DNA from: Escherichia phage vB_EcoM_Shinka
Length of the DNA: 64,000 nucleotides
Strand: one strand, 5' to 3'
Sequence record: MZ502379.1
A program made the translations under genes and the position numbers. The first letter of the stretch is position 1; the number at the start of each line of letters is the position of its first letter. Under the pieces are notes generated by a model. It was given only the letters and a program-made list of their open reading frames with translations. It was not told where the DNA came from and did not search any database. Below, in pieces: positions 4,335 through 63,950 of this stretch.

Positions 4335-4603
4335 TATTTAAAACGAATAGTTGAATCCTTAAAGAACAGCCCAGAACATACTGTTCCTTCTACTTTCTGC
4401 CCGGTAGGTCCAATAGCACGAAATCCAGTATGCTGGAAATCATTTTCAGAGCAACCGAACCAGTTATATCCAGTGATTTCAATATTAGTAAACCCACTTG
4501 AAGACAAAACTTTGGTTGCATTATCAGCATCAGTACATCCTACTAAAGATACTGCTAATACTAATGCCGCGATAGAACGATTAACATATTTCATAATTTT
4601 CAC
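4334..4603 (-). CDS. small lipoprotein-like protein (89 aa)
   Basis: N-terminal signal peptide with lipobox-like LVGC; in the 39.1/39.2 region. Confidence 0.6.
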   Translation of the reverse strand: MKIMKYVNRSIAALVLAVSLVGCTDADNATKVLSSSGFTNIEITGYNWFGCSENDFQHTGFRAIGPTGQKVEGTVCSGLFFKDSTIRFK

Positions 4604-4971
4604 TTAAATTTAATGGCTTGAAGAAGACTAATAACTCTCAAGCGACTTCTTTCATCTTTAACTGTAAAAGAAAGAGGGTCACCAGACTTCATAGTAATAG
4701 TGCATTCAAAATCAAAATCTTCGGAAACTTCTTTGAAGAAGTCAAATTCTTCATCATAAATTAAAACTTCACTCCGAAGACTGTGAAGAGTTTTTCCGTC
4801 ATTTCCAGATGCTGTACTAATCATTGTAACATTATTACCTTTCATATCTTCAACGATAAATTCGCTTGTAGATATTACAGCATTAATAGAACCATTCCTA
4901 TAAATAGCAGAAAATAGATATTTCTTTTCTTCACCTTCGCGAATGCGATATTTCTTACCGATTTTAAACAT
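4600..4971 (-). CDS. hypothetical protein (123 aa)
   Basis: ORF with start/stop overlap to its neighbour (translational coupling). Confidence 0.55.
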   Translation of the reverse strand: MFKIGKKYRIREGEEKKYLFSAIYRNGSINAVISTSEFIVEDMKGNNVTMISTASGNDGKTLHSLRSEVLIYDEEFDFFKEVSEDFDFECTITMKSGDPLSFTVKDERSRLRVISLLQAIKFK

Positions 4972-4973
4972 AA

Positions 4974-5150
4974 TTACCCTTTAAGTAAGTCGTAAAATCC
5001 GCCATTCACATGCTTAGGGGCAGAGACTAACCGAATAGCAATCCGATGACAATCAGGACATACATCAGTATCTCTTTCAGAAATTTTCTTGATTTTTTCG
5101 TATTCTTTTGCGCAGTCTTTTGATTGACATTTATAATCATAAAGCGGCAT
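4974..5150 (-). CDS. small zinc-ribbon protein, CxxC-x(n)-CxxC (58 aa)
   Basis: Hand translation: MPLYDYKCQSKDCAKEYEKIKKISERDTDVCPDCHRIAIRLVSAPKHVNGGFYDLLKG; below the 60-aa cutoff of the ORF track. Confidence 0.5.
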   Translation of the reverse strand: MPLYDYKCQSKDCAKEYEKIKKISERDTDVCPDCHRIAIRLVSAPKHVNGGFYDLLKG

Positions 5151-5152
5151 AA

Positions 5153-5566
5153 TTATTCCTTAAAGTGAGCTTTCAACATCTGATACAAGGACCACGCCTG
5201 TTCATCATTTTCAATAGTAACTTTCATTACAGGGAATTTAGATTGATCAGTTATCGGTGCAGATTCTTCCTGCTCTTCAGCTGCCTGGTATGGATTTTCA
5301 ACTTCATTAAAGAATTCAGCTTCATTCGATGAAAGCCAAATAAAATCTTCATCCAAAATATCTTTACCAGAAGATAGTACTAAATTTCCAGCAAATGACA
5401 TAATTTTAATAGGACGCCCAAGAGCATCCACATCTAAAATTTTAAAAGGATGCATACCTAAACGGCGTGCATAGATTCCGTTATCAGTATGGTCTTTAAT
5501 AAAATTTTCTTGAGCTTGTTTATTTTTAAATTGATACCATTTATTAACTTCAAATCTAATAGCCAT
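5153..5566 (-). CDS. hypothetical protein (137 aa), in the goF/comC-alpha position
   Basis: ORF in the 39-motB interval; identity with goF not verified. Confidence 0.5.
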
Positions 5567-5784
5567 TAATAAATTTCCTTCCAGTAAGTTGTGCCATCTT
5601 CAGTGATTTCACGGAATACACCATAAATTGGTTGTTTATCACCGACTTTCTCATATACATAAACCGAAGTCAAGTGAGTAAACTTGATAGTGTGTTCCTT
5701 TTGAACTACTACCAAATCTGGATCGAATAATACATCTTCAAATTCATCATTAGTGCAATTCTGAACAATTTTACGTTTCATCAT
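5566..5784 (-). CDS. hypothetical protein (72 aa), in the cef position
   Basis: Small ORF preceded by a promoter-like cassette; size close to T4 Cef but not verified. Confidence 0.45.
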
Positions 5785-5882
5785 AATTTCCTCATTAATT
5801 GAACATTGGAGCGATGCGTTTCAGAAGAGTATCAGCGCACCTTTAACGAATTATCCATTTTATTCTTCAAGTTGTTTTCTGT

Positions 5883-5925
5883 ATCAGTAGTTGATATTGA
5901 TATAGTACCATAATCAACTACTGAT
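5883..5925. repeat. perfect 13-bp inverted repeat (atcagtagttgat / atcaactactgat) with 17-nt spacer
   Basis: Read directly; spacer carries a tatagtacca motif that recurs in promoter cassettes at 26231-26278 and 52066-52110. Confidence 0.8.
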
Positions 5926-5955
5926 GTATATAGTTTTATGAAAAAATTTTAAACT

Positions 5956-6447
5956 TTATGCATAGCGAGCTTTGCTGTAGTGTTTAATCCAACTTTCAGG
6001 AATGACTTTGTATGTTCCTAAAAATACCGCGTTGTATAACTTAACGCCATCTTCTACCCATTGATCAGTAATGTATGCACACATAGCGCGAGTACGCTGA
6101 GGAAGTGGTTGTCCACCTTCGGTAAATTCAAACTCATAAGGAGCAATGAACTTGATAGCTTGACCAAGTTTCCACTTAAAGTCTACACCTACATGCGAAG
6201 TATCAATCGTTTCAATTCCTTTAGCAGGAACAGCTTTCAAAAACGCAGGCTCAAGAAATTTCCATCGAACATAACCAAACTGGGGCTTAGACATTCCATC
6301 TTTAGCAATGATACGTACTTTTACTTCAGAATCTTCATCTTTAACACCGTGTTTAAGCTGAATGCTTACAACTTCGACCAATTTTCCTGCTGCTTTAGAA
6401 CGGGATTTATCAGATACACGAGCAATTTCACCGATATTAATATTCAT
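5956..6447 (-). CDS. motB: MotB-like protein (163 aa)
   Basis: Position between the cef-like ORF and dexA; length matches T4 MotB; shares a C-terminal domain with the next ORF. Confidence 0.6.
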   Translation of the reverse strand: MNINIGEIARVSDKSRSKAAGKLVEVVSIQLKHGVKDEDSEVKVRIIAKDGMSKPQFGYVRWKFLEPAFLKAVPAKGIETIDTSHVGVDFKWKLGQAIKFIAPYEFEFTEGGQPLPQRTRAMCAYITDQWVEDGVKLYNAVFLGTYKVIPESWIKHYSKARYA

Positions 6448-6520
6448 AATTATCTCTCACTTGTTAAAAAGATTTTATACTCCACAGGACCATTATACTC
6501 TGGTCCCAAGAGTTTGTAAA

Positions 6521-7069
6521 CTAGCTTACACGAACATTAATCACTGCGCTACGAGGAACTACAGAGTATTCTCCAGCATGAACTACGTTCAGAAGTTCAA
6601 CGCCATCTTCAATCCACTGGTCTGTTACCCAACCACAGATAGGATTATCAAAAGGACGACGGATAGACACAGCAGCACACAACAGGTCTGTAGGGTCTTG
6701 TTCTTCAACTTCTTGGAACAGGATGAACTCATCTTCATAAACCAGGTTTTTCTTTATTTTGTTATTATCTAACCGGCGACCGTGGATGACGTAAGATTTG
6801 TCAAACCACTCACTTTTGGCAAATTCTTCAACAATAAATTCGCCTTCGCCAAAAACATCAGTCAGAGTTTTATGACCAGAAATCAAGGCATTAGTTTTAA
6901 TTTTAGGTTCAACCAGTTTGTAGGTTTTGCCGATTTCAATAGCGGTAGTCATAGTAGGTTCCTTAATTTCCAGTGGTTTAACAGGGCATACATAAGTGCT
7001 TACAACATCAAAATCAATCAGTTTAGCTACCGGATTTGGTATGTATTCAGGATTATAATTAAATTTCAT
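6521..7069 (-). CDS. MotB paralog (182 aa) sharing the C-terminal domain
   Basis: C-terminus ...CGWVTDQWIEDGVELLNVVHAGEYSVVP aligns with ...CAYITDQWVEDGVKLYNAVFLGTYKVIP of the previous ORF. Confidence 0.6.
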   Translation of the reverse strand: MKFNYNPEYIPNPVAKLIDFDVVSTYVCPVKPLEIKEPTMTTAIEIGKTYKLVEPKIKTNALISGHKTLTDVFGEGEFIVEEFAKSEWFDKSYVIHGRRLDNNKIKKNLVYEDEFILFQEVEEQDPTDLLCAAVSIRRPFDNPICGWVTDQWIEDGVELLNVVHAGEYSVVPRSAVINVRVS

Positions 7070-7071
7070 AA

Positions 7072-7572
7072 TTATCTCATTTCAATAAAATCTACGAGTT
7101 CAGCATGCGATTTGCGGAACATTACTTGGTGCCCACCAATGATAACTTCATCTTCAGGAACTTCGTATACAGCGAGATAAAATCCTTTAGAAGATAATTC
7201 TTCCCGCTCTTCTCGTGTGAACCATCTCATCATATCATATTCACTAGCGAAAGCAAAATGATAAAGACCTATAAACCATCCTGGAATATGATATTCTACT
7301 CCAACATAATCTTTCTTGAACTTAGTATTAATTACTATATTAGCGTTTTTAACTAATAGTTTATCTTCGTGTGGTAAAGGAATTCTTTTATTATTATCGC
7401 TATGATGCATAAAATTAGGTCTGTCATAACCTACGTGTAATAGCCACTCTTCGCTCAATGAATCTATTATACTCCTGTACGGCGTTATTTGAACACAAAG
7501 ATTTCGACGTATTGTTATAGCATCTTCATAATCAAGAATACTAAACGATGATTCAACACGATAAATTTTCAT
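7072..7572 (-). CDS. hypothetical protein (start corrected to MKIYRVESS, about 166 aa)
   Basis: The track ORF extends into the promoter at 7600-7629; internal ATG preceded by GAGGA is the likely start. Confidence 0.55.
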   Translation of the reverse strand: MKIYRVESSFSILDYEDAITIRRNLCVQITPYRSIIDSLSEEWLLHVGYDRPNFMHHSDNNKRIPLPHEDKLLVKNANIVINTKFKKDYVGVEYHIPGWFIGLYHFAFASEYDMMRWFTREEREELSSKGFYLAVYEVPEDEVIIGGHQVMFRKSHAELVDFIEMR

Positions 7573-7599
7573 TTTATTATCCTCAGTAGCTATGGTGTT

Positions 7600-7629
7600 A
7601 TAATACCACAACTAACCGAGGAAGTAAAC
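7600..7629 (-). promoter_or_regulatory. T4-type early promoter
   Basis: Minus strand GTTTAC-ttcctcggttagttgtgg-TATTAT. Confidence 0.65.
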
Positions 7630-7635
7630 AACTTT

Positions 7636-8319
7636 TTATCGTTTTGTTGGAAGAGATAGAGGATCGCAATCTTCCTCTGACGGAGCATCTTCAAGACCCA
7701 TAGCATATCGCAAAGCATACTTCATCATCAGAATATCTTTCGCACAGTCATGAATAGAATCATGCGCAACGAATCCATCTAAAGTTCCTTTTGGAAGAGG
7801 ACACGTGGTCATATCACGAACAAGTAGAAGTGCTTCAATTCTGGTACGAATATCACGCTGATTCCAGAATTTACATGGTTCTAACTTAAATGTGTCAAGC
7901 TCATTCTCAGAAACACCATTAAGACGTTGAATATCACGAATGAGATCGACTAAAATTGGAAAATCAAACGACATTCCACGGCACCAGCCTTGAGATTTCC
8001 AAGGATCGATATTATGTGCATTGATGTAATCATTAAATTTTGCAATACCATCGATAGTGCTTACATCTTCATCTGATGGTGCAATATTTTTTCGAGCTTC
8101 AGGAGATTGGTTCTTCCACCATTCAATAGTGCTTTTAGTAAAAAGACGATGTCCTTTTTGGCTTTTTAAATCAAATTTGATTTTAATGCCGCGTGAAACT
8201 AATTCATCAAATGTTTCAACTACTTCTGGGTTAGGGTCAAAAGCAATTACAGCTAAATCAATAACAGCTGCCTTTTCGCCGCTTCCCATTGTTTCAAAAT
8301 CTATAATAAAATCAAACAT
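7636..8319 (-). CDS. dexA: exonuclease A, DEDD 3'-5' exonuclease (227 aa)
   Basis: Length and sequence consistent with T4 DexA; conserved position upstream of dda. Confidence 0.88.
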   Translation of the reverse strand: MFDFIIDFETMGSGEKAAVIDLAVIAFDPNPEVVETFDELVSRGIKIKFDLKSQKGHRLFTKSTIEWWKNQSPEARKNIAPSDEDVSTIDGIAKFNDYINAHNIDPWKSQGWCRGMSFDFPILVDLIRDIQRLNGVSENELDTFKLEPCKFWNQRDIRTRIEALLLVRDMTTCPLPKGTLDGFVAHDSIHDCAKDILMMKYALRYAMGLEDAPSEEDCDPLSLPTKR

Positions 8320-12762: not shown

Positions 12763-12801
12763 GATTAATAATCATGATAGCCTCCGTATACTTCAGAAGC
12801 T

Positions 12802-12831
12802 ATCATATCATCGTTAGAAAGGAAAGTAAAC
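12802..12831 (-). promoter_or_regulatory. T4-type early promoter
   Basis: Minus strand GTTTAC-tttcctttctaacgatga-TATGAT. Confidence 0.55.
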
Positions 12832-12842
12832 AACTTTTTGAA

Positions 12843-18533: not shown

Positions 18534-18700
18534 TCTTTACTCTTCTTTTTCTTTAGATTCCTCTTTTTTCTTTTAGGAATCTGTTCAGGACCTTTATTTA
18601 CTACAGCACCTGATGTTGTTCCAGTAGAGATATTTTCAGGATTACCACCTGAATCTCCAGCAACCATATCTTCTTTAATAAATTCTTTATATGTTTTCAT
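18521..18700 (-). CDS. small basic protein (59 aa), 61.1-like
   Basis: Hand translation MKTYKEFIKEDMVAGDSGGNPENISTGTTSG...KRKKRNLKKKKSKECHQ; overlaps the gene 61 start. Confidence 0.45.
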   Translation of the reverse strand: MKTYKEFIKEDMVAGDSGGNPENISTGTTSGAVVNKGPEQIPKRKKRNLKKKKSKECHQ

Positions 18701-18701
18701 A

Positions 18702-19058
18702 TTAACCTCTATTCATAAAAGCATTAAAAATTTGGTCATCAATAGATGGAATAGCAACCTTTTCGGCATCATTTAGCAAATCATTAATTTCATCAGATAG
18801 CATAACACATGTGCCTTTATTTCCTGTAATTGTTACTGCACAATTACGAACGTTTTCTTTATTAAATTTTAGGTTAATATTTTCGTAATGAAAATCCTTT
18901 AATGCTGAATATATTTTTAAAATAAAATTGTCTTTTACTACAATAAACCCAACCTCACTATTAAAACGTGGTTCATGGAAACTGTAATAAACCTTTTCAT
19001 CTATAAAATCGTATGAAATTTTTTCCATTTTTAAATATGAAAATTCAGAACTATACAT
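18702..19058 (-). CDS. hypothetical protein (118 aa)
   Basis: ORF in the 61-41 interval. Confidence 0.55.
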   Translation of the reverse strand: MYSSEFSYLKMEKISYDFIDEKVYYSFHEPRFNSEVGFIVVKDNFILKIYSALKDFHYENINLKFNKENVRNCAVTITGNKGTCVMLSDEINDLLNDAEKVAIPSIDDQIFNAFMNRG

Positions 19059-19364: not shown

Positions 19365-19424
19365 GATAATCTCCTCAGTAGTTTATGTTTATATAGTATC
19401 TCAATTTCCAATAAAAGTAAACAG

Positions 19425-19866: not shown

Positions 19867-19924
19867 AACAATCTCCTCATTTAACCAACAAGACTACTAT
19901 ACCATAGTCTTGTCAGCTTGTAAA

Positions 19925-26016: not shown

Positions 26017-26211
26017 TTACCCCATTTGCACACCTAAAGATCCATTTGTATTCACATGAAGATTATCATCAATTTTAACTGATATTTTACCATTAGTGTG
26101 AATAACGGTGCTAGATTCAATCACAGGTTGAGTATCATTTTCAACACTAACAAATGGAACTGCTGCTAATGCAACTAAACAAACTGCTAAGCATCCCATA
26201 ACAATTTTCAT
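26017..26211 (-). CDS. small secreted/membrane protein (start corrected to MKIVMG)
   Basis: Signal-peptide-like N-terminus; the track start appears to be a non-ATG codon. Confidence 0.45.
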   Translation of the reverse strand: MKIVMGCLAVCLVALAAVPFVSVENDTQPVIESSTVIHTNGKISVKIDDNLHVNTNGSLGVQMG

Positions 26212-26248
26212 TTCATTCTCCAAATCCGTATCAGTAGTTGATAGTTGT

Positions 26249-26278
26249 ATAGTACCATGGAAGAACAGTCTTGTAAAC
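26249..26278 (-). promoter_or_regulatory. T4-type early promoter with conserved leader (copy of 52081-52110)
   Basis: Minus strand GTTTAC-aagactgttcttccatgg-TACTAT followed by ACAACTATCAACTAC leader. Confidence 0.6.
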
Positions 26279-26364
26279 AGTTTTGTGAAAATTTTTTAGG
26301 GAATTCTAAATGTCCAGAATCATCTGTTTTTCATAAGTATAGATTTATATTACTTGTATGAAAA

Positions 26365-26382
26365 AGGGACCCGGAGGTCCCT
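26365..26382 (-). terminator. hairpin terminator downstream of gene 43
   Basis: gggacc-cgga-ggtccc with A-run on plus strand (U-tract on mRNA). Confidence 0.65.
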
Positions 26383-26394
26383 AGATTTATTCTA

Positions 26395-29091
26395 TCAGCC
26401 AAACAGGAAGTCTAACGAAGCTTTTTCTTCATAGTCCATACCAGCCGATTCACACATGCCCGCAAGCGGTTTAACAAACGATTTTTGGAACAAAGTTGAG
26501 TAGTCAATCCAAGACAGTACGTCAGAACGAATTTCTTTTGGAAGTTCTGTACCCGACGGCCAAGCAATGCATTTGTCACCAAATGGATTTCCTTCACGCA
26601 ATGGAAGAACCATTACTTTATTTCCATCCAAAATTGGAGCTACACCTAAACCGCTAACAGCTCGACGATAAGTTAGCACACCGCGAATATGGAACGGGCA
26701 TTTAAATCCTGGCCAACCTTTATCATCATATTTCGCTATATCGTTCGCAGTTTTTACTTCAGCAATAACTTTATAGTCAAGTTGACGATATTCTTTCTCG
26801 AAGTTCTTGTAGTATTCTTGGACAGACTCTTCACCTTCTTGAAGAATACGACGAATACTTTCTTCGAGAGCTTCTTGGACCGCTTTAGGCGTTGAACTCT
26901 GCTGAGTTTCCATACCCATGATTTTTAGATGCGGTTCAGCAAATCGTTTATCTTCCATATCATAAACGTTCAGAGCATAACGCTTTTTCGCTTTCCAAAA
27001 TCCACCAATACCCTTTGAACCAAGTGGAGGGCAAGAAATAGCTTCACGGTCCATATGCATCAGATGCTCGCGGTTATTCATATAATCACATAACTCACGA
27101 TATGCAACATCAATCATAGGTTCCATCTTTTTCTTACCGAACTGATTCATAAATTCAACCAAATCGTTCTGCTCTTTGAATCGGTCAAGACCAACTTTTT
27201 CAATAACTTTATCTACACAAACATATACCGAATCAGTATCACCTGCTGCGATGAAATCTTCGCCATTAGTTCCACATACTTTATTCAGATACTCATTAAT
27301 TTTACGAGCAATCCACTGAATACCAACTTGGCCGAAAATTGTGATAGCAGTAGCATTTCGCAAATCATAGTAACGGAAATGAATATTACCAAGAGCACCA
27401 TAAAGACTGTTAATAAGAATTTTACGGTTCAGCTGATTTGTATTAGCAAGTGTAGCAGCTTTTTCACATTCCTCAATCAGACTATTGAGAACAGATTCAG
27501 TATAATTCGACAGTTCATTTAAGAAATCATCACTGAACTTAACATATCGTTCAACTTCTGGTTTAGTTGAACAAGACCCTGCGCCTTTCATAATAATCTT
27601 TTTAATAGCTTCGGCATTCATTTCTTCAGCGAACATTTTCTTTTTCCAGTCTTTACGCTGGAAAAATACTTTAGCGATTTCCTTTGGAATGATACCTTCT
27701 TGATGCTTATCATACATCCATCCATTCGGAGAACAAGAATATTCATCACTCGGTTTAGGAGCTGTTCCTGCAATATATTCATGAATTGGATGAACTTTAA
27801 ACTGACCACGAATAGTCTCAGGACTAATGTTAACCTGACGAATAATGCTCGGATACAGAGACGTCAAGTCAAAACTCATAATATATCGACGAGCAATTGG
27901 TTTAGGTTCAAATACGAATGCACCCGGAAAACTCTGTTTAACGTGCGAACCCTGTTGAGGAATAACCTTATGTTCACCTTTCAATGAGTTAAAAATAATA
28001 GCATCCCAAGTTTTAATAGGACTCATTACACCAGAAAAAGGCATTTTAGCATAATAAGACATACTTAAAACTAGATCGATAAACCCGCGAATTTTATCAA
28101 TTGCTTGAACTGATTCTACGTCAATGATGTTATAACTAATGTATCGTTGATGATTAGTCTCACGAAGTTTATTAATAGGACCATCATACGGTAATTTACC
28201 TTTTTTGGTTTCATGTTGAGCAACTGATTCCAAAGAGAATGACGGCAAATTAGTAAAAGCGAATTTCTTGTACAAATCTAAATAATCAAGAATAGATACG
28301 CCATCAATAGAATAAATTTCTTTGCTACCGTACATATTTTGAATTAGTTTAGATTTTACTCGACCGATTGGAGAGAAGCGTTTCATACTACGTTCACCGA
28401 GAACCATTTTAACACGATTCATGATATACGGAACGTCAAATCCCTCAATATTCCAACCAGTAAAAATAGCAGGTCGTTTCTGTTCCCAGAGATTGATATA
28501 TTCCATGAGCATATCACGCTCATTATCGAATGGCATATAAATTACTCGGTCAAGAATTTCTTGAGGAACTTCATCACCACCTTCACAGTCAAGCTTAGCA
28601 GCTAACTTTGCATCCCATTTTGATACTGAACCGTACATTGAATTCAAAAGGTCGAAAACATAAAAACGATCATCAATTGAATCATAATGAGTGATAGCAT
28701 CAATTTCATATTCAGCTTTCATTGGATCAGGAAATTTATCACCAGTAACCTCAATGTCACAGTTAGCTACACGAACAAATTTTCGGTCATAAACAATTTC
28801 TGAACCATACGTATCACTGATATAAGCGAGTTTAAAATCGTTCATACCAAGAGCTTCGAGACCGATGTCTTCCATTCGCTTCATCCAATCTCGAGCATCT
28901 TTCATTGATGGAAATTTTTGAGGAGCGCAATTTTTACCATAGATGTCTTTGTACTTTGACTCTTCCTTACAATGTCTAAACATAGTTGGAAGATATTCTA
29001 CTTCGCGAGTACGTTCCTTTCCATTTTCATCAATATAACGTTCAACAATGTTATTTCCGACTGTTTCGATAGAGATATAAAATTCTTTCAT
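26395..29091 (-). CDS. 43: DNA polymerase, family B (898 aa)
   Basis: 898 aa; exonuclease and polymerase motifs (DTDS, YGDTDS-like); matches T4 gp43. Confidence 0.97.
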   Translation of the reverse strand: MKEFYISIETVGNNIVERYIDENGKERTREVEYLPTMFRHCKEESKYKDIYGKNCAPQKFPSMKDARDWMKRMEDIGLEALGMNDFKLAYISDTYGSEIVYDRKFVRVANCDIEVTGDKFPDPMKAEYEIDAITHYDSIDDRFYVFDLLNSMYGSVSKWDAKLAAKLDCEGGDEVPQEILDRVIYMPFDNERDMLMEYINLWEQKRPAIFTGWNIEGFDVPYIMNRVKMVLGERSMKRFSPIGRVKSKLIQNMYGSKEIYSIDGVSILDYLDLYKKFAFTNLPSFSLESVAQHETKKGKLPYDGPINKLRETNHQRYISYNIIDVESVQAIDKIRGFIDLVLSMSYYAKMPFSGVMSPIKTWDAIIFNSLKGEHKVIPQQGSHVKQSFPGAFVFEPKPIARRYIMSFDLTSLYPSIIRQVNISPETIRGQFKVHPIHEYIAGTAPKPSDEYSCSPNGWMYDKHQEGIIPKEIAKVFFQRKDWKKKMFAEEMNAEAIKKIIMKGAGSCSTKPEVERYVKFSDDFLNELSNYTESVLNSLIEECEKAATLANTNQLNRKILINSLYGALGNIHFRYYDLRNATAITIFGQVGIQWIARKINEYLNKVCGTNGEDFIAAGDTDSVYVCVDKVIEKVGLDRFKEQNDLVEFMNQFGKKKMEPMIDVAYRELCDYMNNREHLMHMDREAISCPPLGSKGIGGFWKAKKRYALNVYDMEDKRFAEPHLKIMGMETQQSSTPKAVQEALEESIRRILQEGEESVQEYYKNFEKEYRQLDYKVIAEVKTANDIAKYDDKGWPGFKCPFHIRGVLTYRRAVSGLGVAPILDGNKVMVLPLREGNPFGDKCIAWPSGTELPKEIRSDVLSWIDYSTLFQKSFVKPLAGMCESAGMDYEEKASLDFLFG

Positions 29092-31287: not shown

Positions 31288-31321
31288 AATTTCCTCATTC
31301 AAGTTTTAGTGTAAATTATAA

Positions 31322-31335
31322 AGGGCCGAAGCCCT
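31322..31335 (-). terminator. hairpin with UUCG tetraloop between genes 45 and 44
   Basis: agggc-cgaa-gccct. Confidence 0.5.
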
Positions 31336-31338
31336 CTA

Positions 31339-32025
31339 TTAAAAATCATGGGTAGAATCAGCTTCAAGAGCTACTACATAATTCGCATGTTCACCTTCAA
31401 ATTTAGCAGCGCCTTGTTTACCTTTTGCCCAAAGCAGAAGTTTATAATTTCCTGGTTGCATTTTCATATTTGCCATATTGATAATGAAATTAAATGTGTT
31501 TTCACCATCATAATCACCAAGAGTCAAAGAATATTTAACACGAGTCAAAGCAGAATCTTCTACTTTATTAAAACCGTTAATTACGATTTTACCTTCTTTT
31601 ACTGTGATAGCAATTGTATCAATCTGCAGACCGCGAGATACACGCAACAACTGTTGAAGGTCTTCAGCTTTAATTTCGGTAACAACAGATGCTACCGGGA
31701 ATGGAATTGGTTTATTAGGAGCAACTACTGTACTCGGATCGGCTGCTGGCCAAAAAATTGTTGAACGGGCATCAGCAATTTTAATATTTCCATCTTCTGA
31801 CTGGGAAATTTCTGCATCATCATTAACTAGCGACAGAATACCGAGAAAACCGTTCAAATCGTAAATTGCTACATCAAAATCAATAACGTCAGAAATATTT
31901 GCTTCCGCGTAAGTTGTACCATTAACTGCGCGAGTCATAATAAATTGACCGGATTTAAGCATAATGCCAGAGTTAATAGTAGCGAAATTTTTAAGCAGAG
32001 CAGTAGTATCTTTAGACAGTTTCAT
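31339..32025 (-). CDS. 45: sliding clamp gp45 (228 aa)
   Basis: 228 aa; matches T4 gp45. Confidence 0.95.
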   Translation of the reverse strand: MKLSKDTTALLKNFATINSGIMLKSGQFIMTRAVNGTTYAEANISDVIDFDVAIYDLNGFLGILSLVNDDAEISQSEDGNIKIADARSTIFWPAADPSTVVAPNKPIPFPVASVVTEIKAEDLQQLLRVSRGLQIDTIAITVKEGKIVINGFNKVEDSALTRVKYSLTLGDYDGENTFNFIINMANMKMQPGNYKLLLWAKGKQGAAKFEGEHANYVVALEADSTHDF

Positions 32026-39630: not shown

Positions 39631-39668
39631 ACATTATCCTCAATTACGTTAAAATTTTATTATCCAAA

Positions 39669-39684
39669 AAGGGCCGAAGCCCTT
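39669..39684 (-). terminator. hairpin with UUCG tetraloop
   Basis: aagggc-cgaa-gccctt. Confidence 0.5.
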
Positions 39685-39883
39685 AGCTAAACTTTTTGGC
39701 ACCCTTCCAGCCTTCGTACATCATTGCGACTGACAATGACAAAGCTCCTTCACATGCTGCATACTTATTATTCCAGAACCAATTTAGAAAAACTTCATCC
39801 TCAATACCATTGTGTTTCATGTTCTGGAAAAATTTGGCGCGTTCTTCAGCAATTCGCTGTGATAATTTAGATTCAGGATTCAT
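39683..39883 (-). CDS. hypothetical protein (66 aa)
   Basis: 55.x-region ORF. Confidence 0.45.
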   Translation of the reverse strand: MNPESKLSQRIAEERAKFFQNMKHNGIEDEVFLNWFWNNKYAACEGALSLSVAMMYEGWKGAKKFS

Positions 39884-49099: not shown

Positions 49100-49129
49100 A
49101 TTATACCACATCCTTGTGGCAAAGTAAAC
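49100..49129 (-). promoter_or_regulatory. T4-type early promoter (near-copy of 2418-2447)
   Basis: Minus strand GTTTAC-tttgccacaaggatgtgg-TATAAT. Confidence 0.7.
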
Positions 49130-50157
49130 TAGTTCAGTGCATTTAGTGCATTGTTCAGTTTAGAACGTTGCTTTGTCAGATTTTGAACCCTTGACTGAGC
49201 TTGTTCTAACGCCTTTTCAGCTTCTAGCATTTCATTGGTCGCTTTAACGAGTTCATCATCTACTGCCTTAAGAGACTTTTCAATCGCATCAGCGTGCCAT
49301 TTTTCTACAGGTTTAAAATTTGAATTTTCAGTAGGAAGAAAACTCACTTTATTAAGTTTACATGCATCTATGTTACTTGAACTGTACATCCAACATTTAG
49401 GATCGTTTGATAAGTAATTGGATAAATTTAAATTTAAGGTATCTTGCACTTCCTGCTTTTTCTCTTGAACAATTTCATCCTTTCTCAAAAATTCATATTT
49501 AAATGAAACGATCATATCAAGTTCATATGTTGTTGTATGTTCCCAATTTCGCTCAAAACGAGGTAAAATCTTAGATTGAACAGCAGCAACAACATCCATA
49601 TACTTAAATGCTTCTGTCAGCTGTGATTTAAGACATTCACAAATTGAAAGAGAATTTTTAGTATTAGGCTTAAAGCTAATTCGTGCAGTTCTATTATTTT
49701 CTTTTAACGGTCTTACTTCCATCTGAAGAGTATAACCATCAAATTTCAGGTTCTTTAAGTTAATGTCAGAACCTTTTAATCGACTAGCCGTCGACAAAAT
49801 TTGCTTTAATTGTCTACGGAACAGAGCAATAAATCTCCATTCAATTCGATAATGATTTGGATTGAAAAATCCAGATGATAAATCGACCTTACTTTGACCA
49901 ACGCCTTGAACAATCAAAGGATTTTTATAATCAATAGTTTTACAGAAATCGGTGAGCTGTTCACGAGCAGTCATTTGTGTAATATACCCTGCTTTACTAA
50001 AATTACGCACCCATTCACTGCTATTCGTATACTTAAAGTGATGAATAACACGATTAACTTTATCAGGGTCTAAATTATTTTCACACAAAAATGTCATAAC
50101 ATCACGAGTATAGCTGGCATTACGAACCATATCTTCAATTTGAGAACGAGTTTTCAT
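49129..50157 (-). CDS. hypothetical protein with C-terminal coiled coil (342 aa); paralog array member
   Basis: Starts MKTRSQIEDM. Confidence 0.6.
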   Translation of the reverse strand: MKTRSQIEDMVRNASYTRDVMTFLCENNLDPDKVNRVIHHFKYTNSSEWVRNFSKAGYITQMTAREQLTDFCKTIDYKNPLIVQGVGQSKVDLSSGFFNPNHYRIEWRFIALFRRQLKQILSTASRLKGSDINLKNLKFDGYTLQMEVRPLKENNRTARISFKPNTKNSLSICECLKSQLTEAFKYMDVVAAVQSKILPRFERNWEHTTTYELDMIVSFKYEFLRKDEIVQEKKQEVQDTLNLNLSNYLSNDPKCWMYSSSNIDACKLNKVSFLPTENSNFKPVEKWHADAIEKSLKAVDDELVKATNEMLEAEKALEQAQSRVQNLTKQRSKLNNALNALN

Positions 50158-51524: not shown

Positions 51525-52052
51525 TTATGCGAGTACCGTCTTTAACCGTTCTTCAAACTTCCGAAGAGTATTTTGGCGTTCAGCTCTTTGCTTTTTGTAA
51601 GTTTCAATACGCTCTGAAATGAGAGTGTATCGTTCATTTACTGATTCTTTCATAAAATCAGGAATTTCACGAGAAGCTTTAATCTCGTCAAATTTATCAA
51701 TAACTGCTTGCTCTTCAGCAATTAAGTTATCATACATCAAAATATCTTTCTTGATGAACTCAATATCTTCTTGAGTTACACGAGATAATTTAGATGCTTT
51801 ATCCTTTTTGTACTGTTCGTTAGTATCACGAGACCAGTGTAATGTACGATTTTTATTCGTATTCTTGTAAATTTCTACAATACCAATCTCATCGATAATA
51901 ACGATCCAATTCCAACGAGATTTGTAAATTTGTCCTCCGTCAACCGTGATTTCACCTCCGATTGAGATGTCATTAAAGAACTTGCTTTGTGCTTCAGATT
52001 TAAATTTACCATCGTTGTAATTTACCAGGTTGAAAATATCTTTAGCGTTCAT
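51525..52052 (-). CDS. hypothetical protein with C-terminal coiled coil (175 aa)
   Basis: ORF with GGAGG SD downstream of the promoter at 52081-52110. Confidence 0.55.
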   Translation of the reverse strand: MNAKDIFNLVNYNDGKFKSEAQSKFFNDISIGGEITVDGGQIYKSRWNWIVIIDEIGIVEIYKNTNKNRTLHWSRDTNEQYKKDKASKLSRVTQEDIEFIKKDILMYDNLIAEEQAVIDKFDEIKASREIPDFMKESVNERYTLISERIETYKKQRAERQNTLRKFEERLKTVLA

Positions 52053-52080
52053 TTTGTGTTCCTCCGTAGTTGATAGTTGT

Positions 52081-52110
52081 ATAGTACCACAGAGGAACAG
52101 TCTTGTAAAC
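52081..52110 (-). promoter_or_regulatory. T4-type early promoter with conserved leader (copy of 26249-26278)
   Basis: Minus strand GTTTAC-aagactgttcctctgtgg-TACTAT followed by ACAACTATCAACTAC. Confidence 0.6.
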
Positions 52111-52112
52111 CA

Positions 52113-52427
52113 CTAAAAGAAACTTCTTTCACAATTTTTTCCACTGAACCATGCGCTTACCGCTTTCTTAGTCTCAGGAGCAGTGTTATCCATAAACCAT
52201 TCAAAGGCAGCCTTTTTATGATTCTGGAGGGCTTCTCGGGCTTTAATCTGCTCACGGTCTATTAACACTAACATATGAGCCTTTCTTGTCACCATGGGCT
52301 TCTTATGATTTTTTGAATACTCCCAATCATTTGTCCAACGCATTGTCGTTGCGAATTGAAATACAGCTTCTTTAATTTTAGTTTCGTAAATTTCACGAGC
52401 CTTTGAGTATAACATCATTACCTCCAT
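52113..52427 (-). CDS. hypothetical protein (104 aa)
   Basis: nrdC.x-region ORF. Confidence 0.5.
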   Translation of the reverse strand: MEVMMLYSKAREIYETKIKEAVFQFATTMRWTNDWEYSKNHKKPMVTRKAHMLVLIDREQIKAREALQNHKKAAFEWFMDNTAPETKKAVSAWFSGKNCERSFF

Positions 52428-56974: not shown

Positions 56975-57001
56975 GTTGTTCTCCTCTTAACTGATAGAAA
57001 A

Positions 57002-57031
57002 ATTATACCACAGTCAAGAGGAAAAGTAAAC
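57002..57031 (-). promoter_or_regulatory. T4-type early promoter for regB
   Basis: Minus strand GTTTAC-ttttcctcttgactgtgg-TATAAT. Confidence 0.7.
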
Positions 57032-59204: not shown

Positions 59205-59783
59205 TTAGGAATTACGGGCTGCATTAGCAACGGCATACGCGTACTGAACATTAGCGTCTTTAAACGTACCTTTAGAGGTATCTAGTTCTGCCTTAAAGCC
59301 GCCTTTAGCCATAACATCGGCAAATTCTTTACGGAAAGCCATTGCATCAAGACCTTTCCATGATGATTTATGCTTGGCAAATTCAAGACCAGCGTAGTTG
59401 ACAGCCTTAGCTAATTTATTATCAATAACCCATTTACCGGCTTTAGGCACAAACACCGGGCCTTTCTGTTTGGAGAATAGTTTTAAATTCCAGCGACGAA
59501 GGTCACCGTCAGCTTTAACAAAAGCTGCGTCCAAGTTACTAGCAACAACATCTTGAATATGGCCAAATTTAAGCCCATCAACTTCAATATTTAGATCGGT
59601 ACGCCAGCGAAGTCCTTCCCAAGCGAAGGCTTTAAAGTCGGAAGCCTTTGTAGCTAAGTACCGTTCAATAGGAGCTGTTTTAGGGTCAAAGCCGTTTCCA
59701 GATCGGTATGTCCACTCATCTTTGTTAATGCCTTTGGCCTTTACTACAGAAGCTTCGGCAATAAATTCTTGATATGTTTTCAT
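59205..59783 (-). CDS. ipIII: internal head protein, IPIII-like, with capsid targeting sequence (192 aa)
   Basis: N-terminal MKTYQEFIAE CTS with predicted prohead-protease cleavage after Glu. Confidence 0.8.
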   Translation of the reverse strand: MKTYQEFIAEASVVKAKGINKDEWTYRSGNGFDPKTAPIERYLATKASDFKAFAWEGLRWRTDLNIEVDGLKFGHIQDVVASNLDAAFVKADGDLRRWNLKLFSKQKGPVFVPKAGKWVIDNKLAKAVNYAGLEFAKHKSSWKGLDAMAFRKEFADVMAKGGFKAELDTSKGTFKDANVQYAYAVANAARNS

Positions 59784-59811
59784 GTGTTTCCTTGTTTGTT
59801 TTGATAGAGTA

Positions 59812-59844: not shown

Positions 59845-60105
59845 TTAAGCTTTACCGCCAGAAATAATTCCGAAGTTGTTAAAATCATATCCAATATCGT
59901 CAACATCTACTTTAGGACTTGCTACAACATAAGCAATTTCACTACGTTTTGCACAGGTGTTGATTTCTTTACCATCGCCACCTAAGAAAGAATACCCATT
60001 ACGTTTTAATGAGCCAAAGTCTTCCGCATCACCAATGAAAGCTTTAACTTTAAATTTAGAACCTTTGGCATCTGCTTCAACGATAAATTCTTGATACATT
60101 TTCAT
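59845..60105 (-). CDS. small internal protein with capsid targeting sequence (86 aa)
   Basis: N-terminal MKMYQEFIVEA CTS-like. Confidence 0.65.
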   Translation of the reverse strand: MKMYQEFIVEADAKGSKFKVKAFIGDAEDFGSLKRNGYSFLGGDGKEINTCAKRSEIAYVVASPKVDVDDIGYDFNNFGIISGGKA

Positions 60106-60111
60106 TTTTCC

Positions 60112-60222
60112 TTAGTAAATTGATTTACCAAAGTATTTGTACCAAGTCGGACGTTGAGCAATTTTTTCATCTAAGCGTGCTTGACTTATCGCAATGGACG
60201 CTTCGGACGGGACATAATTTCC
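60112..60222 (-). pseudogene. denV: denV (endonuclease V, pyrimidine-dimer glycosylase) 3' remnant
   Basis: Only ...[31 protein letters not shown] matches the C-terminal about 35 aa of T4 DenV; upstream is unrelated and occupied by a promoter and an internal-protein gene. Confidence 0.7.
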
Positions 60223-60242
60223 TCCAAGTAGTTGATGAATGT

Positions 60243-60272
60243 ATAGTATCAAAACCCTTGGAGGAAGTAAAC
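60243..60272 (-). promoter_or_regulatory. T4-type early promoter lying where denV 5' sequence would be
   Basis: Minus strand GTTTAC-ttcctccaagggttttga-TACTAT. Confidence 0.5.
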
Positions 60273-60274
60273 AA

Positions 60275-61515
<1,241 letters not shown>

Positions 61516-63314: not shown

Positions 63315-63335
63315 TCCTATTTACTCTAAGTAATA

Positions 63336-63350
63336 GGGGCCCGAAGCCCC
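63336..63350 (-). terminator. hairpin with CGAA/UUCG-type loop
   Basis: ggggc-ccgaa-gcccc. Confidence 0.45.
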
Positions 63351-63356
63351 TTATCA

Positions 63357-63950
63357 TTATTTCAGAGAATTAATATATTCCTGAACATCGGCAGAGGTAG
63401 TTTCAACCCCAGAAATATTGCCATTAAAGGTTTCAACTCGGGCAAGAGTATCTTCAATATCAACTTTAGTCAGTGCTGCAATTTCAACTACATCATCAGC
63501 AGTACTAATTCCAAGGGCATTCGCAGCACGAGTTTCACGGATATATTCCAATTTAACTGCAAGTTCTTGGCGAGCATCATCTAACTCAACTACTTTCTTG
63601 GCGATTTCAATTCGCATTTCAGCATACCCATCAGCTTTAGTAGTCAACTGCTCAGCTGTTCGACGATATAGCAAGCCGAGTTTAGCATGCATTGTTACAT
63701 CTTGACCTTCGGAAAGAAGCTTGCGAATTTCACGCTCTTTTGATTCGGCCTGCTTATTCTTTTCGACAATAAGTTCACGAATACGCTTTTCTTCATTAAT
63801 AGATTTAACAGAAGCAGTTTTTAGGTCTTTAATTTTATCAAGCAGTTTTGCTGCTGCGGCAGTATACTGTTCTTCAACAGATAGATTTTTAGCCATAGCA
63901 GAACCAAGTTTAGTGCGAATAAACTCAACAATTTTCTTCAGTGTGTTCAT
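63357..63950 (-). CDS. coiled-coil protein, possibly PspA/IM30-like (197 aa)
   Basis: Long heptad-like helical sequence; similarity to PspA is an impression only. Confidence 0.4.

Follow-up and report, generated by a model that had tools for sequence, protein, structure and literature searches.

The three copies of a repeated element in the window, the whole 64,000-nt stretch of phage DNA analyzed here, probably constitute one family of portable T-even early-expression cassettes, early promoters of the PeSL ('promoter-early stem-loop') type that are kept alike by recombination. The inverted repeat at copy 1 is best explained as a promoter spacer complementary to its own leader, most likely acting in read-through RNA. 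We put the probability of this reading at roughly three in four. The element is real and was correctly read, and it is of an already described kind, as it matches the PeSL cassettes published for T4-type phages. Coordinates of the features are collected in Table 1.

Over 4 kb around the copy 1 hairpin the DNA is 99.8% identical to Yersinia phage PYps35T and 98-99% identical to many Tequatrovirus genomes. These identities, together with coordinates that agree with the start of those genomes, indicate that the window is the initial 64 kb of a T4-like phage (Tequatrovirus). Nearly all of its genes are carried on the minus strand. A replication origin at copy 1 was considered and rejected, as the T4 RefSeq record has no rep_origin feature at 4500-7500, the same record having one elsewhere.

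Table 1. Features of the three cassette copies, their relatives and the promoter-embedded hairpins.
Feature	Position	Strand	Description
Copy 1, setting	between motB (5956-6447) and cef (5566-5784)	minus	
Copy 1, UP-like region	5931..5955	minus	A/T-rich aaaattttttcataaaact; homologous to copy 2 UP
Copy 1, promoter core	5902..5930	minus	-35-like TATACA (5930-5925), 17-nt spacer, TGG and -10 TACTAT (5907-5902)
Copy 1, hairpin	5883..5925	minus	5' arm ATCAGTAGTTGAT (5925-5913), promoter spacer; 3' arm ATCAACTACTGAT (5895-5883), conserved leader; -10 in loop
Copy 1, leader end and dead gene	5832..5871	minus	RBS GAAG, ATG 5858-5856, 8-codon remnant ending at 5832
Copy 2, setting	3' of gene 43 (DNA polymerase, 26395-29091)	minus	precedes 64-aa signal-peptide ORF (26017-26211), then imm.1 homologue
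Gene 43 terminator	26358..26382	minus	AGGGACC, tccg, GGTCCCT, T run; canonical; just upstream of copy 2
Copy 2, full cassette	26209..26300	minus	UP region, GTTTACA (-35 hexamer 26277-26272), 17 nt, TGGTACTAT (-10 26254-26249), leader ACAACTATCAACTACTGATACGGATTT, GGAGAATGAAATG (ATG 26211-26209)
Copy 3, setting	between homologues of T4 nrdC.9 and nrdC.8	minus	names from T4 annotation
Copy 3, full cassette	52050..52130	minus	GTTTACA (-35 hexamer 52109-52104), 17 nt, TGGTACTAT (-10 52086-52081), leader ACAACTATCAACTAC, GGAGGAACACAAAATG (ATG 52052-52050); upstream of nrdC.8 homologue, PHROG 2274
Copy 3, promoter-embedded hairpin	52057..52099	minus	5' arm in spacer and -10 (52099-52086); 3' arm over RBS GGAGGAAC (52070-52057); 14 pairs, -20.2 kcal/mol, z -4.2
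Degenerate relative	19393..19421	minus	TTTACT, 17 nt, TACTAT, then ...AAACTACTGAGGAG; repeat-search family D1
Degenerate relative	60213..60275 (core 60243-60271)	minus	TTTACT, 17 nt, TACTAT, ACATTCATCAACTACTTGGAGG; own hairpin, z -3.7
Seven hairpin promoters (first base of -35)	5930, 6520, 7628, 19924, 52109, 57030, 60271		from fold screen
Dhakavirus (IME08) hairpin			UGGUAGGGUA / UACCCUAUCA; -35 again TATACA
Winklervirus (X20) hairpin			GGUGUAGGAG / CUCCUACACC; perfect 10-bp stem
Mosigvirus (LH01) hairpin			UUCUCCUC / GAGGAGAA; 3' arm is the ribosome-binding site

A 24-nt core, GTAGTTGATAKTTGWATAGTACCA, was found at 5887-5910 with 2 mismatches and at 26234-26257 and 52066-52089 with 0, and 100 dinucleotide-preserving shuffles of the window contained 0 matches to it. 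The three copies claimed by the sequence-only reading are upheld by this result, but the consensus written there misfits copy 1 (TTGAT versus GTTGT in the middle) and copy 3, which does not have the leading CA. Copies 2 and 3 consist, in minus-strand order, of an A/T-rich UP region, GTTTACA, 17 nt, TGGTACTAT, the leader ACAACTATCAACTAC, GGAG and ATG, and the two are alike over ~48 nt, the GTTTAC box included. Copy 1 has its UP region in common with copy 2 (60% identity versus a background of 0.38 +/- 0.10). A ribosome-binding site and start codon stand at the 3' end of each copy: GGAGAATGAAATG in copy 2, GGAGGAACACAAAATG in copy 3 and, in copy 1, GAAGAATAAAATG followed by an 8-codon remnant of a gene that is intact in T2. 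An earlier claim that each copy lies upstream of a minus-strand gene start holds for copies 2 and 3; behind copy 1 there is only the remnant, with the start of cef ~100 nt downstream of the copy.

T4 early promoters are recognized by GTTTAC(A/T), a 17-nt spacer, a TGn-extended TAnnnT -10 and an A-rich UP region. Copies 2 and 3 possess all of these, and copy 1 possesses all except the -35, where TATACA replaces TTTACA and the match to GTTTACA is 5/7. The proposal that two of the copies form the -10 and leader of a GTTTAC early promoter agrees with the sequence of copies 2 and 3 and with the T4 motA promoter, which has the same cassette. Sequence therefore supports, as a predicted identity, the assignment of copies 2 and 3 as promoter plus leader. 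Copy 1 may also be an active promoter, judging from its sequence.

The simplest alternative is that the copies resemble one another only in the generic way of A/T-rich T4 early promoters and that there is no distinct cassette. GTTTAC, TGGTAnnAT and an A-rich upstream region are indeed common to all T4 early promoters, and the repeat search placed many promoters of the window in families D1, D2, D4 and D6. The 17 minus-strand early promoters of the window served as background. Over 84 nt, promoter pairs are identical at 0.44 +/- 0.07 of positions, whereas the three copies gave 0.70, 0.67 and 0.56, which agrees with the earlier expectation that they exceed A/T-rich promoter similarity. In the first 25 nt past the -10 the copies gave 0.80, 0.72 and 0.64 against a background of 0.36 +/- 0.13. 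Of all 136 promoter pairs theirs rank highest, with the surplus similarity in the leader, outside the promoter consensus. In addition, a 23-nt core is identical at seven loci in two genera (Tequatrovirus and Mosigvirus) while the flanks differ. Generic likeness is extremely unlikely in the face of this evidence. Weaker likeness is seen in two degenerate relatives (19393-19421 and 60243-60271), which share the TACTAT -10 and an ...AACTAC... leader with the cassette; in the hairpin of the second, TTCCTCCAAG pairs with CTTGGAGGAA, the ribosome-binding site.

PeSL cassettes (Arbiol et al. 2010, PMC2839356; Comeau et al. 2014, PMC4122927) are the same composite of A/T-rich region, sigma-70-type early promoter, stem-loop, ribosome-binding site and start codon, and they are likewise repeated many times before small variable ORFs. 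All defining sequence features of a PeSL cassette are present here. The promoter, a match at the level of sequence, is GTTTACA, 17 nt and TGGTACTAT with A/T-rich DNA upstream in copies 2 and 3, and the same with TATACA in copy 1; the consensus TTTACW-N17-TAYWAT given for PST/T4 (PMC4122927) fits the copies. Stem-loops occur in copy 1 (z -5.2) and in copy 3 (z -4.2), where the structure overlaps the -10, and copy 2 has only the gene 43 terminator upstream. Repetition is accompanied by indels of small ORFs, one of which lies at the edge of copy 2 when the window is compared with T4. In the intergenic region of copy 1, phage PST, analyzed in PMC4122927, and the window are 98.8% identical, and the T4 ndd region, a worked example in that paper, holds one copy of this cassette. 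Two differences were noted. PST/T4 stem-loops are placed just upstream of the promoter in the account of PMC4122927, whereas at 7/17 early promoters of the window they are made of spacer and leader; and the stems here are A/U-rich, whereas those of PeSLs are G/C runs.

Scans of viral and metagenome contigs, together with individual phage records, yielded 62 cassette instances of seven locus types with unrelated genes downstream. At least seven gene starts in T4-like phages, including T4 motA, are preceded by the same core. The five downstream proteins scanned all fall in different PHROG families, namely 4189 (the 64-aa signal-peptide ORF behind copy 2), 2274, 3720, 2678 and 1754 (imm.1), and the sixth is MotA. 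T4 has at least five copies: one with a hairpin identical to that of copy 1, one corresponding to copy 2 but directly before imm.1, one corresponding to copy 3 before nrdC.8, the motA early promoter, and one between denB and ndd.6. The motA and denB-ndd.6 copies are outside the range of the window, and in syntenic contigs one locus type lies ~350 bp beyond the window end. The T4 motA early promoter has the same UP region, GTTTACA and TGGTACTAT, with leader ACAACTATCAACTACTGATACAG. Copy 1 differs from it in having TATACA for TTTACA and a spacer rewritten to pair with the leader.

The edges of the cassette are points where homology between phages breaks. The window is collinear with T4 through copy 2 to ATGAAAAT, after which the two differ by an entire ORF; these 8 nt are seen again at the start of imm.1. 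Parts of the cassette are also found at loci other than their usual ones. The locus past the window end typically has the spacer variant tccctgttcttc[c/t]at, which phage U115 has at the gene 43 locus; in the reverse case, the agactgttcttctat spacer turns up in one distal-locus instance. The distal part of the copy 1 leader is common to the distal-locus type, into the first codons (ATGGATAATT in the window). The T4 denB-ndd.6 copy combines the spacer of another promoter family (2418-2449, 49100-49131) with the leader of copy 2 and the first 12 nt of the imm.1 coding sequence. Such mosaic exchange of neighboring segments implies that recombination is acting. Modular shuffling by these cassettes, which had been proposed from the sequence alone, is supported by the seven gene starts, the breaks of homology and the swapped spacers; it is the idea already published for PeSLs (PMC2839356, PMC4122927). 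Mini-circle crossovers in PeSLs map between the -10 and the ATG (PMC2839356), the same interval that is most conserved in the cassette here, and exchange between copies is what the PeSL model predicts.

Alternatively, the leader ACAACTATCAACTAC could have a signaling function of its own, as RNA or as DNA, and be kept by selection rather than by recombination; it might, for example, aid promoter escape, direct the modification of 5' ends or bind a factor on early mRNAs. The 23-nt core that is identical at seven loci in Tequatrovirus and Mosigvirus amid differing flanks is what such a signal would look like, and a review notes additional conserved positions in T4 early promoters whose role is unknown (PMC2988021). 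However, most early promoters of the window do not have the leader, no Rfam family matches it, RegB needs no specific sequence 5' of GGAG (PMC1702504), and the mosaic exchange of adjoining segments points to recombination. We regard a leader signal as distinctly unlikely. A caveat for the cassette reading itself is that the likeness of the copies could also stem from an ancient duplication combined with selection on the leader rather than from ongoing exchange.

Copy 1 had been described as flanked by a perfect inverted repeat. The 13-bp perfect repeat is real (plus-strand arms ATCAGTAGTTGAT, 5883-5895, and ATCAACTACTGAT, 5913-5925); it is the longest in 64 kb and comes first among the 19 inverted repeats that the search of the window reported. 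It does not flank the element, however, because its left arm on the plus strand is the element's own leader and its right arm is the spacer between -35 and -10, making it part of the promoter architecture. The repeat can be extended to 20-nt arms with 85% complementarity and a 3-nt loop. The fold of the sense RNA consists of a 13-pair stem, a 2x2 internal loop, 5 further pairs and a 3-nt loop. The -10 falls within the loop of this 18-pair hairpin because the spacer can pair with the leader of the same promoter. The sense (minus-strand) RNA gave -24.1 kcal/mol (z -6.3) and the antisense -18.9 (z -2.8), the weaker antisense fold being due to an inner pair that is G.U. In the fold screen of the 17 promoters copy 1 scored 18 pairs, -20.2 kcal/mol and z -5.2. 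Sigma-70 geometry would place the start of transcription near the A at 5895, the initial base of the 3' arm.

The hairpin is nearly invariant. A stretch of 55 nt around it is 100% identical in 433/497 full-length phage matches, while phage matches to the entire 171-nt intergenic region are mostly at 90-95% identity. The sole variant found in the arms has G for A opposite a U, so that a G.U pair remains in the sense RNA. Both natural stem variants (n=2) are G.U-compatible, an outcome with a chance of ~1 in 4. Because Tequatrovirus genomes are closely related, this invariance is only modest evidence of selection. The arms cannot be aligned with the hairpins of other genera. No Rfam model matched at gathering score anywhere in the window, and around the hairpin there were only sub-threshold chance matches to miRNA-precursor, snoRNA and sRNA models.

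The gene behind copy 1 is dead. T2-type phages have an intact 89-aa ORF there (PHROG 3720), and T4 and the window share a ~206-bp deletion inside the ORF that leaves a few codons. The ribosome-binding site has decayed to GAAG in the window, versus GGAG in T4 and T2. A cassette-mediated origin of the deletion was rejected, as the ~206 bp are internal to the ORF, between short A-rich repeats, and no second cassette is involved. The cef gene begins ~100 nt downstream of copy 1. If its promoter is active, copy 1 would now serve cef and the genes beyond. The GenBank record of phage SA20RB calls the copy 1 hairpin a rho-independent terminator (WebGeSTer).

It is accordingly worth asking whether the inverted repeat at 5883-5925 is mainly the intrinsic terminator of motB, with a dead promoter embedded in it. 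The SA20RB annotation, the -35 degraded to TATACA, the ORF remnant downstream in T4 and the window, and the termination demonstrated for PeSL stem-loops of RB49/phi1 (PMC2839356) are all in keeping with this idea. However, the stem is A/U-rich (in the 13-bp core, 4 pairs are G-C) and the sequence after it is ACAGAAAACAAC, in contrast to the G+C-rich stem and U run of rho-independent terminators; because the U tract is absent, the hairpin is not a canonical terminator. A scan of 5000-7800 detected no canonical intrinsic terminator. TATACA, the 17-nt spacing, TGG and the -10 do not vary among ~500 genomes, Dhakavirus retains the same -35 and spacing around a different hairpin, and T2-type phages retain an intact gene directly behind. 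These results make a terminator with a dead promoter unlikely.

Hairpins that enclose the -10 are not confined to copy 1. Of the 17 early promoters in the window, seven form folds whose loop contains the -10 (z -3.4 to -5.3). At 7628, 52109 (copy 3), 57030 and 60271 the ribosome-binding site is taken up by the 3' arm, which at 5930, 6520 and 19924 corresponds to the first transcribed bases predicted. For the spacer of copy 3 its own leader is the best partner (rank 1 of 17); copy 2 has no embedded hairpin in the fold screen (z +1.4). Among the -35/spacer segments of the window promoters, duplexes of spacer with own leader averaged -12.3 kcal/mol versus -8.0 for non-cognate pairs, and 0/20000 permutations were as low. 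The sense strand folds better in 9/10 cases (sums -193 versus -125 kcal/mol; 31 versus 7 G.U pairs), an asymmetry that base composition could partly account for. A canonical terminator lies within 110 nt upstream of 0/7 hairpin promoters versus 4/10 others, a suggestive contrast that is not statistically significant. Copy 2 is one promoter of the latter sort; the gene 43 terminator, ~85 nt upstream of its -35 box, coincides with the gene 43 terminator site that T4 record M37159 labels a potential terminator. The motA copy and the distal-locus copy, both behind canonical terminators, have no such hairpin either.

Other genera present the same layout in other letters. Ahead of cef or of the gene that follows motB, Dhakavirus, Winklervirus and Mosigvirus have hairpins of unrelated sequence that enclose a -10 (z -3.4 to -3.8). 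In Dhakavirus IME08 the copy 1 locus retains TATACA, the 17-nt spacing and a -10 around a different hairpin.

These comparisons bear on two further explanations of the palindrome. It might act as DNA, as the operator of a dimeric regulator or as a cruciform controlling the early promoter. Its perfect 13-bp half-sites have centers about three helical turns apart and overlap the promoter, and the shut-off of T4 early promoters is incompletely understood (PMC3014915, PMC2988021). Against this, the inner stem and one natural variant need G.U pairs that are present only in the sense RNA, and the sense strand is the better fold in 9/10 cases. Moreover, seven promoters of the genome have hairpins of unrelated sequence, and those of other genera at the same position are different again; unrelated hairpins at one position imply structure rather than the binding site of one protein. 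Alternatively, an inverted duplication templated by strand switching might have left the palindrome behind as a neutral by-product without function. One arm repeats the adjoining leader exactly in inverse orientation, as quasi-palindrome correction would yield, but the hairpin is far better conserved than the surrounding intergenic DNA, and independent hairpins are found at the corresponding position in three further genera, as well as at six more promoters of the window. We consider action as DNA very unlikely and assign the neutral by-product the same low standing.

If the copies are portable early-expression cassettes, the following sequence of events can be proposed. Each cassette would supply host sigma-70 RNA polymerase with an A/T-rich UP region, GTTTACA, a 17-nt spacer and the extended -10 TGGTACTAT; strong T4 early promoters of the 'UP/-35/TGn/-10' form serve the unmodified host polymerase (PMC2988021). 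It would also supply a conserved initial transcribed sequence, ACAACTATCAACTAC(TGATAC), a ribosome-binding site of the RegB type (GGAG) and a start codon. T4-type recombination, for which short homology suffices, would swap and homogenize the copies and set them before different small genes. We found no genome-wide map of T4 transcription start sites in the literature.

The hairpins most likely act as follows. In every case the predicted start of transcription is downstream of the 5' arm, so the hairpin can form only in read-through RNA. At copy 1, read-through RNA from motB would fold, and the hairpin may attenuate, insulate or shield the 3' end of the upstream transcript. RNA begun at the embedded promoter would have no 5' arm and hence be open. 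At copy 3 the 3' arm would lie over the ribosome-binding site, so read-through RNA would be poorly translated; with GGAG covered, ribosomes would be blocked and possibly RegB too, leaving the RNA perhaps RegB-resistant. At copy 2 the canonical terminator of gene 43 would stand in place of an embedded hairpin.

RegB sites were compared with the consensus, GGAG followed by a 7-nt A-rich, C-free stretch, GGAGAAUAAAA (PMC1702504). The ribosome-binding site of copy 1 in T4 and T2 is GGAGAAUAAAA, 11/11 to consensus; in the window it is GAAGAAUAAAA, with GGAG lost. Copy 2 has GGAGAAUGAAA (10/11), and copy 3 has GGAGGAACACA, a poorer match that is structured. Two cassette genes are reported RegB substrates (Durand et al. 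2006, PMC1702504): MotA mRNA is a good substrate and the nrdC.8 site, that of the copy 3 gene, is cleaved moderately; window copy 1 differs in having decayed to GAAG. Sixteen T4 GGAG sites in stable structures resist RegB, for a cause that the authors left open (PMC1702504). The conserved leader was considered as a RegB determinant and rejected because RegB requires no specific sequence 5' of GGAG (PMC1702504). Since the ribosome-binding site equals the RegB consensus in T4/T2 copy 1 and is one position off in copy 2, the cassette would encode a fast start together with a fast shut-off.

The proposed logic resembles that of T4 e, soc, 49 and I-TevI (PMC3014915), in which read-through RNA has both arms and a buried ribosome-binding site, while internally started RNA without the 5' arm is translated. 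That geometry is also seen in copy 3 and in the 7628, 57030 and 60271 promoters. In e, soc, 49 and I-TevI, however, the internal promoters are late and the hairpins control timing (PMC3014915), whereas here the internal promoter is early; copy 1 is further unlike them in that its 3' arm is leader rather than ribosome-binding site. Bacterial promoter-coupled terminators (Fletcher et al., bioRxiv 2026, 10.64898/2026.08.19.745784) offer another parallel. In that report a stem-loop or termination signal overlaps the next promoter and couples neighboring units, as here, but it concerns bacterial genomes and canonical terminators, whereas the hairpin here has no U tract.

A broader rule can be put forward only tentatively. 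Many T-even early promoters (7/17 here) may be deliberately built into 'self-excluding' hairpins in which the spacer is complementary to the leader or ribosome-binding site of the same promoter. Transcripts that come in from upstream would be folded, and as such insulated, poorly translated, and perhaps RegB-resistant or 3'-protected, while RNA born at the promoter would be open, giving a general insulation rule for early units. We think this extension possible but doubtful. The available text of the PeSL papers notes stem-loops overlapping the -10 in RB49/phi1 (PMC2839356, PMC4122927); the self-excluding logic is not stated in that text, nor is it described there for T4/PST. Two observations may not have been stated before: that the stem of copy 1 repeats the leader of its own cassette in inverse orientation, and that ~40% of the early promoters of this region have spacer-leader pairing with a strand bias pointing to RNA. 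If true, self-excluding hairpins would extend the late-promoter trick of gene e, soc and I-TevI to the early class, and would explain why spacer and leader co-vary as a block between genera at the motB-cef position.

For annotation, the cassette sites deserve an early-promoter label; at present the copy 1 hairpin is called a terminator in one public record. If the hairpin logic is confirmed, it would provide a simple rule for how dense early units avoid mutual interference, and compact parts for engineered phage genomes. The cassette is a concrete example of how small accessory genes move in T4-type phages. A unit of ~90 nt would hold all that is needed for immediate, short-lived expression, namely a strong promoter read by the host polymerase, a leader and a RegB-sensitive ribosome-binding site, and would also serve as a homology patch for recombination.

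The -10 element lies in the loop of a hairpin at five additional early promoters of the window, with folding z scores of the promoter-region RNA between -3.4 and -5.3. A strong hairpin of another layout (12773-12834, z -4.5) was observed at the early promoter 12802-12830, where the ribosome-binding site and ATG lie under the 3' arm. Because its 5' arm begins within the -10, RNA initiated at this promoter would still contain part of that arm.

Hairpin-embedded early promoters and repeated elements in the window
Feature	Position	Detail
Hairpin-embedded early promoter	6479-6513	-10 in loop
Hairpin-embedded early promoter	7580-7622	-10 in loop; ribosome-binding site under 3' arm
Hairpin-embedded early promoter	19883-19918	-10 in loop
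Hairpin-embedded early promoter	56979-57025	-10 in loop; ribosome-binding site under 3' arm
Hairpin-embedded early promoter	60219-60266	-10 in loop; ribosome-binding site under 3' arm
G+C-rich stem-loops, UUCG-type loop	29150-29176, 31320-31346, 39668-39694, 63335-63361	minus strand
Gene starts with common ~35 nt	18666-18702, 59749-59785, 60074-60105, 60522-60558	minus strand

The small gene behind the first copy of the main cassette (early promoter, leader and ribosome-binding site) is a remnant at 5832-5858. T2-type phages possess an 89-aa ORF (PHROG 3720) at the same place, and an internal deletion of ~206 bp in T4 and the window phage left just its start and tail. The ribosome-binding site of the remnant has decayed from GGAG to GAAG in the window phage. 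At the second copy, a 64-aa signal-peptide ORF (26017-26211, PHROG 4189) that T4 does not have lies between the main cassette and the imm.1 homologue, and both edges of this indel bear the identical 8 nt ATGAAAAT.

A second promoter repeat was found in the early-promoter pair 2418-2449 and 49100-49131 (32 nt at 97% identity, TTTACTTTRCCACAAGGATGTGGTATAAT). Its spacer holds a small 7-pair hairpin (CCACAAG/UGUGG region), and the same spacer type recurs in the main-cassette copy of T4 denB-ndd.6. Two other repeats were noted. The near-identical G+C-rich stem-loops, which read GGGGCCGAAGCCCC on the plus strand, look like repeated intrinsic terminators. The ~35 nt common to four gene starts (ATGAAAACATATAAAGAATTTATT...) may mark either a small family of paralogous genes or common N-terminal coding sequence.

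In two syntenic contigs (L008 and L021) a further main-cassette copy was observed at ~64.3 kb, ~350 bp beyond the last base of the window, where it precedes an 87-aa ORF (MDNYGELF..., PHROG 2678). The window phage genome probably has this copy as well. Contig L020 (IMG/VR UViG_2974742932, ndd region) carries cassette-like promoters at 1353-1418 and 1861-1906, ~500 bp apart, which bracket tiny membrane-peptide ORFs. PeSL mini-circles have been proposed to form from a tandem arrangement of this kind.
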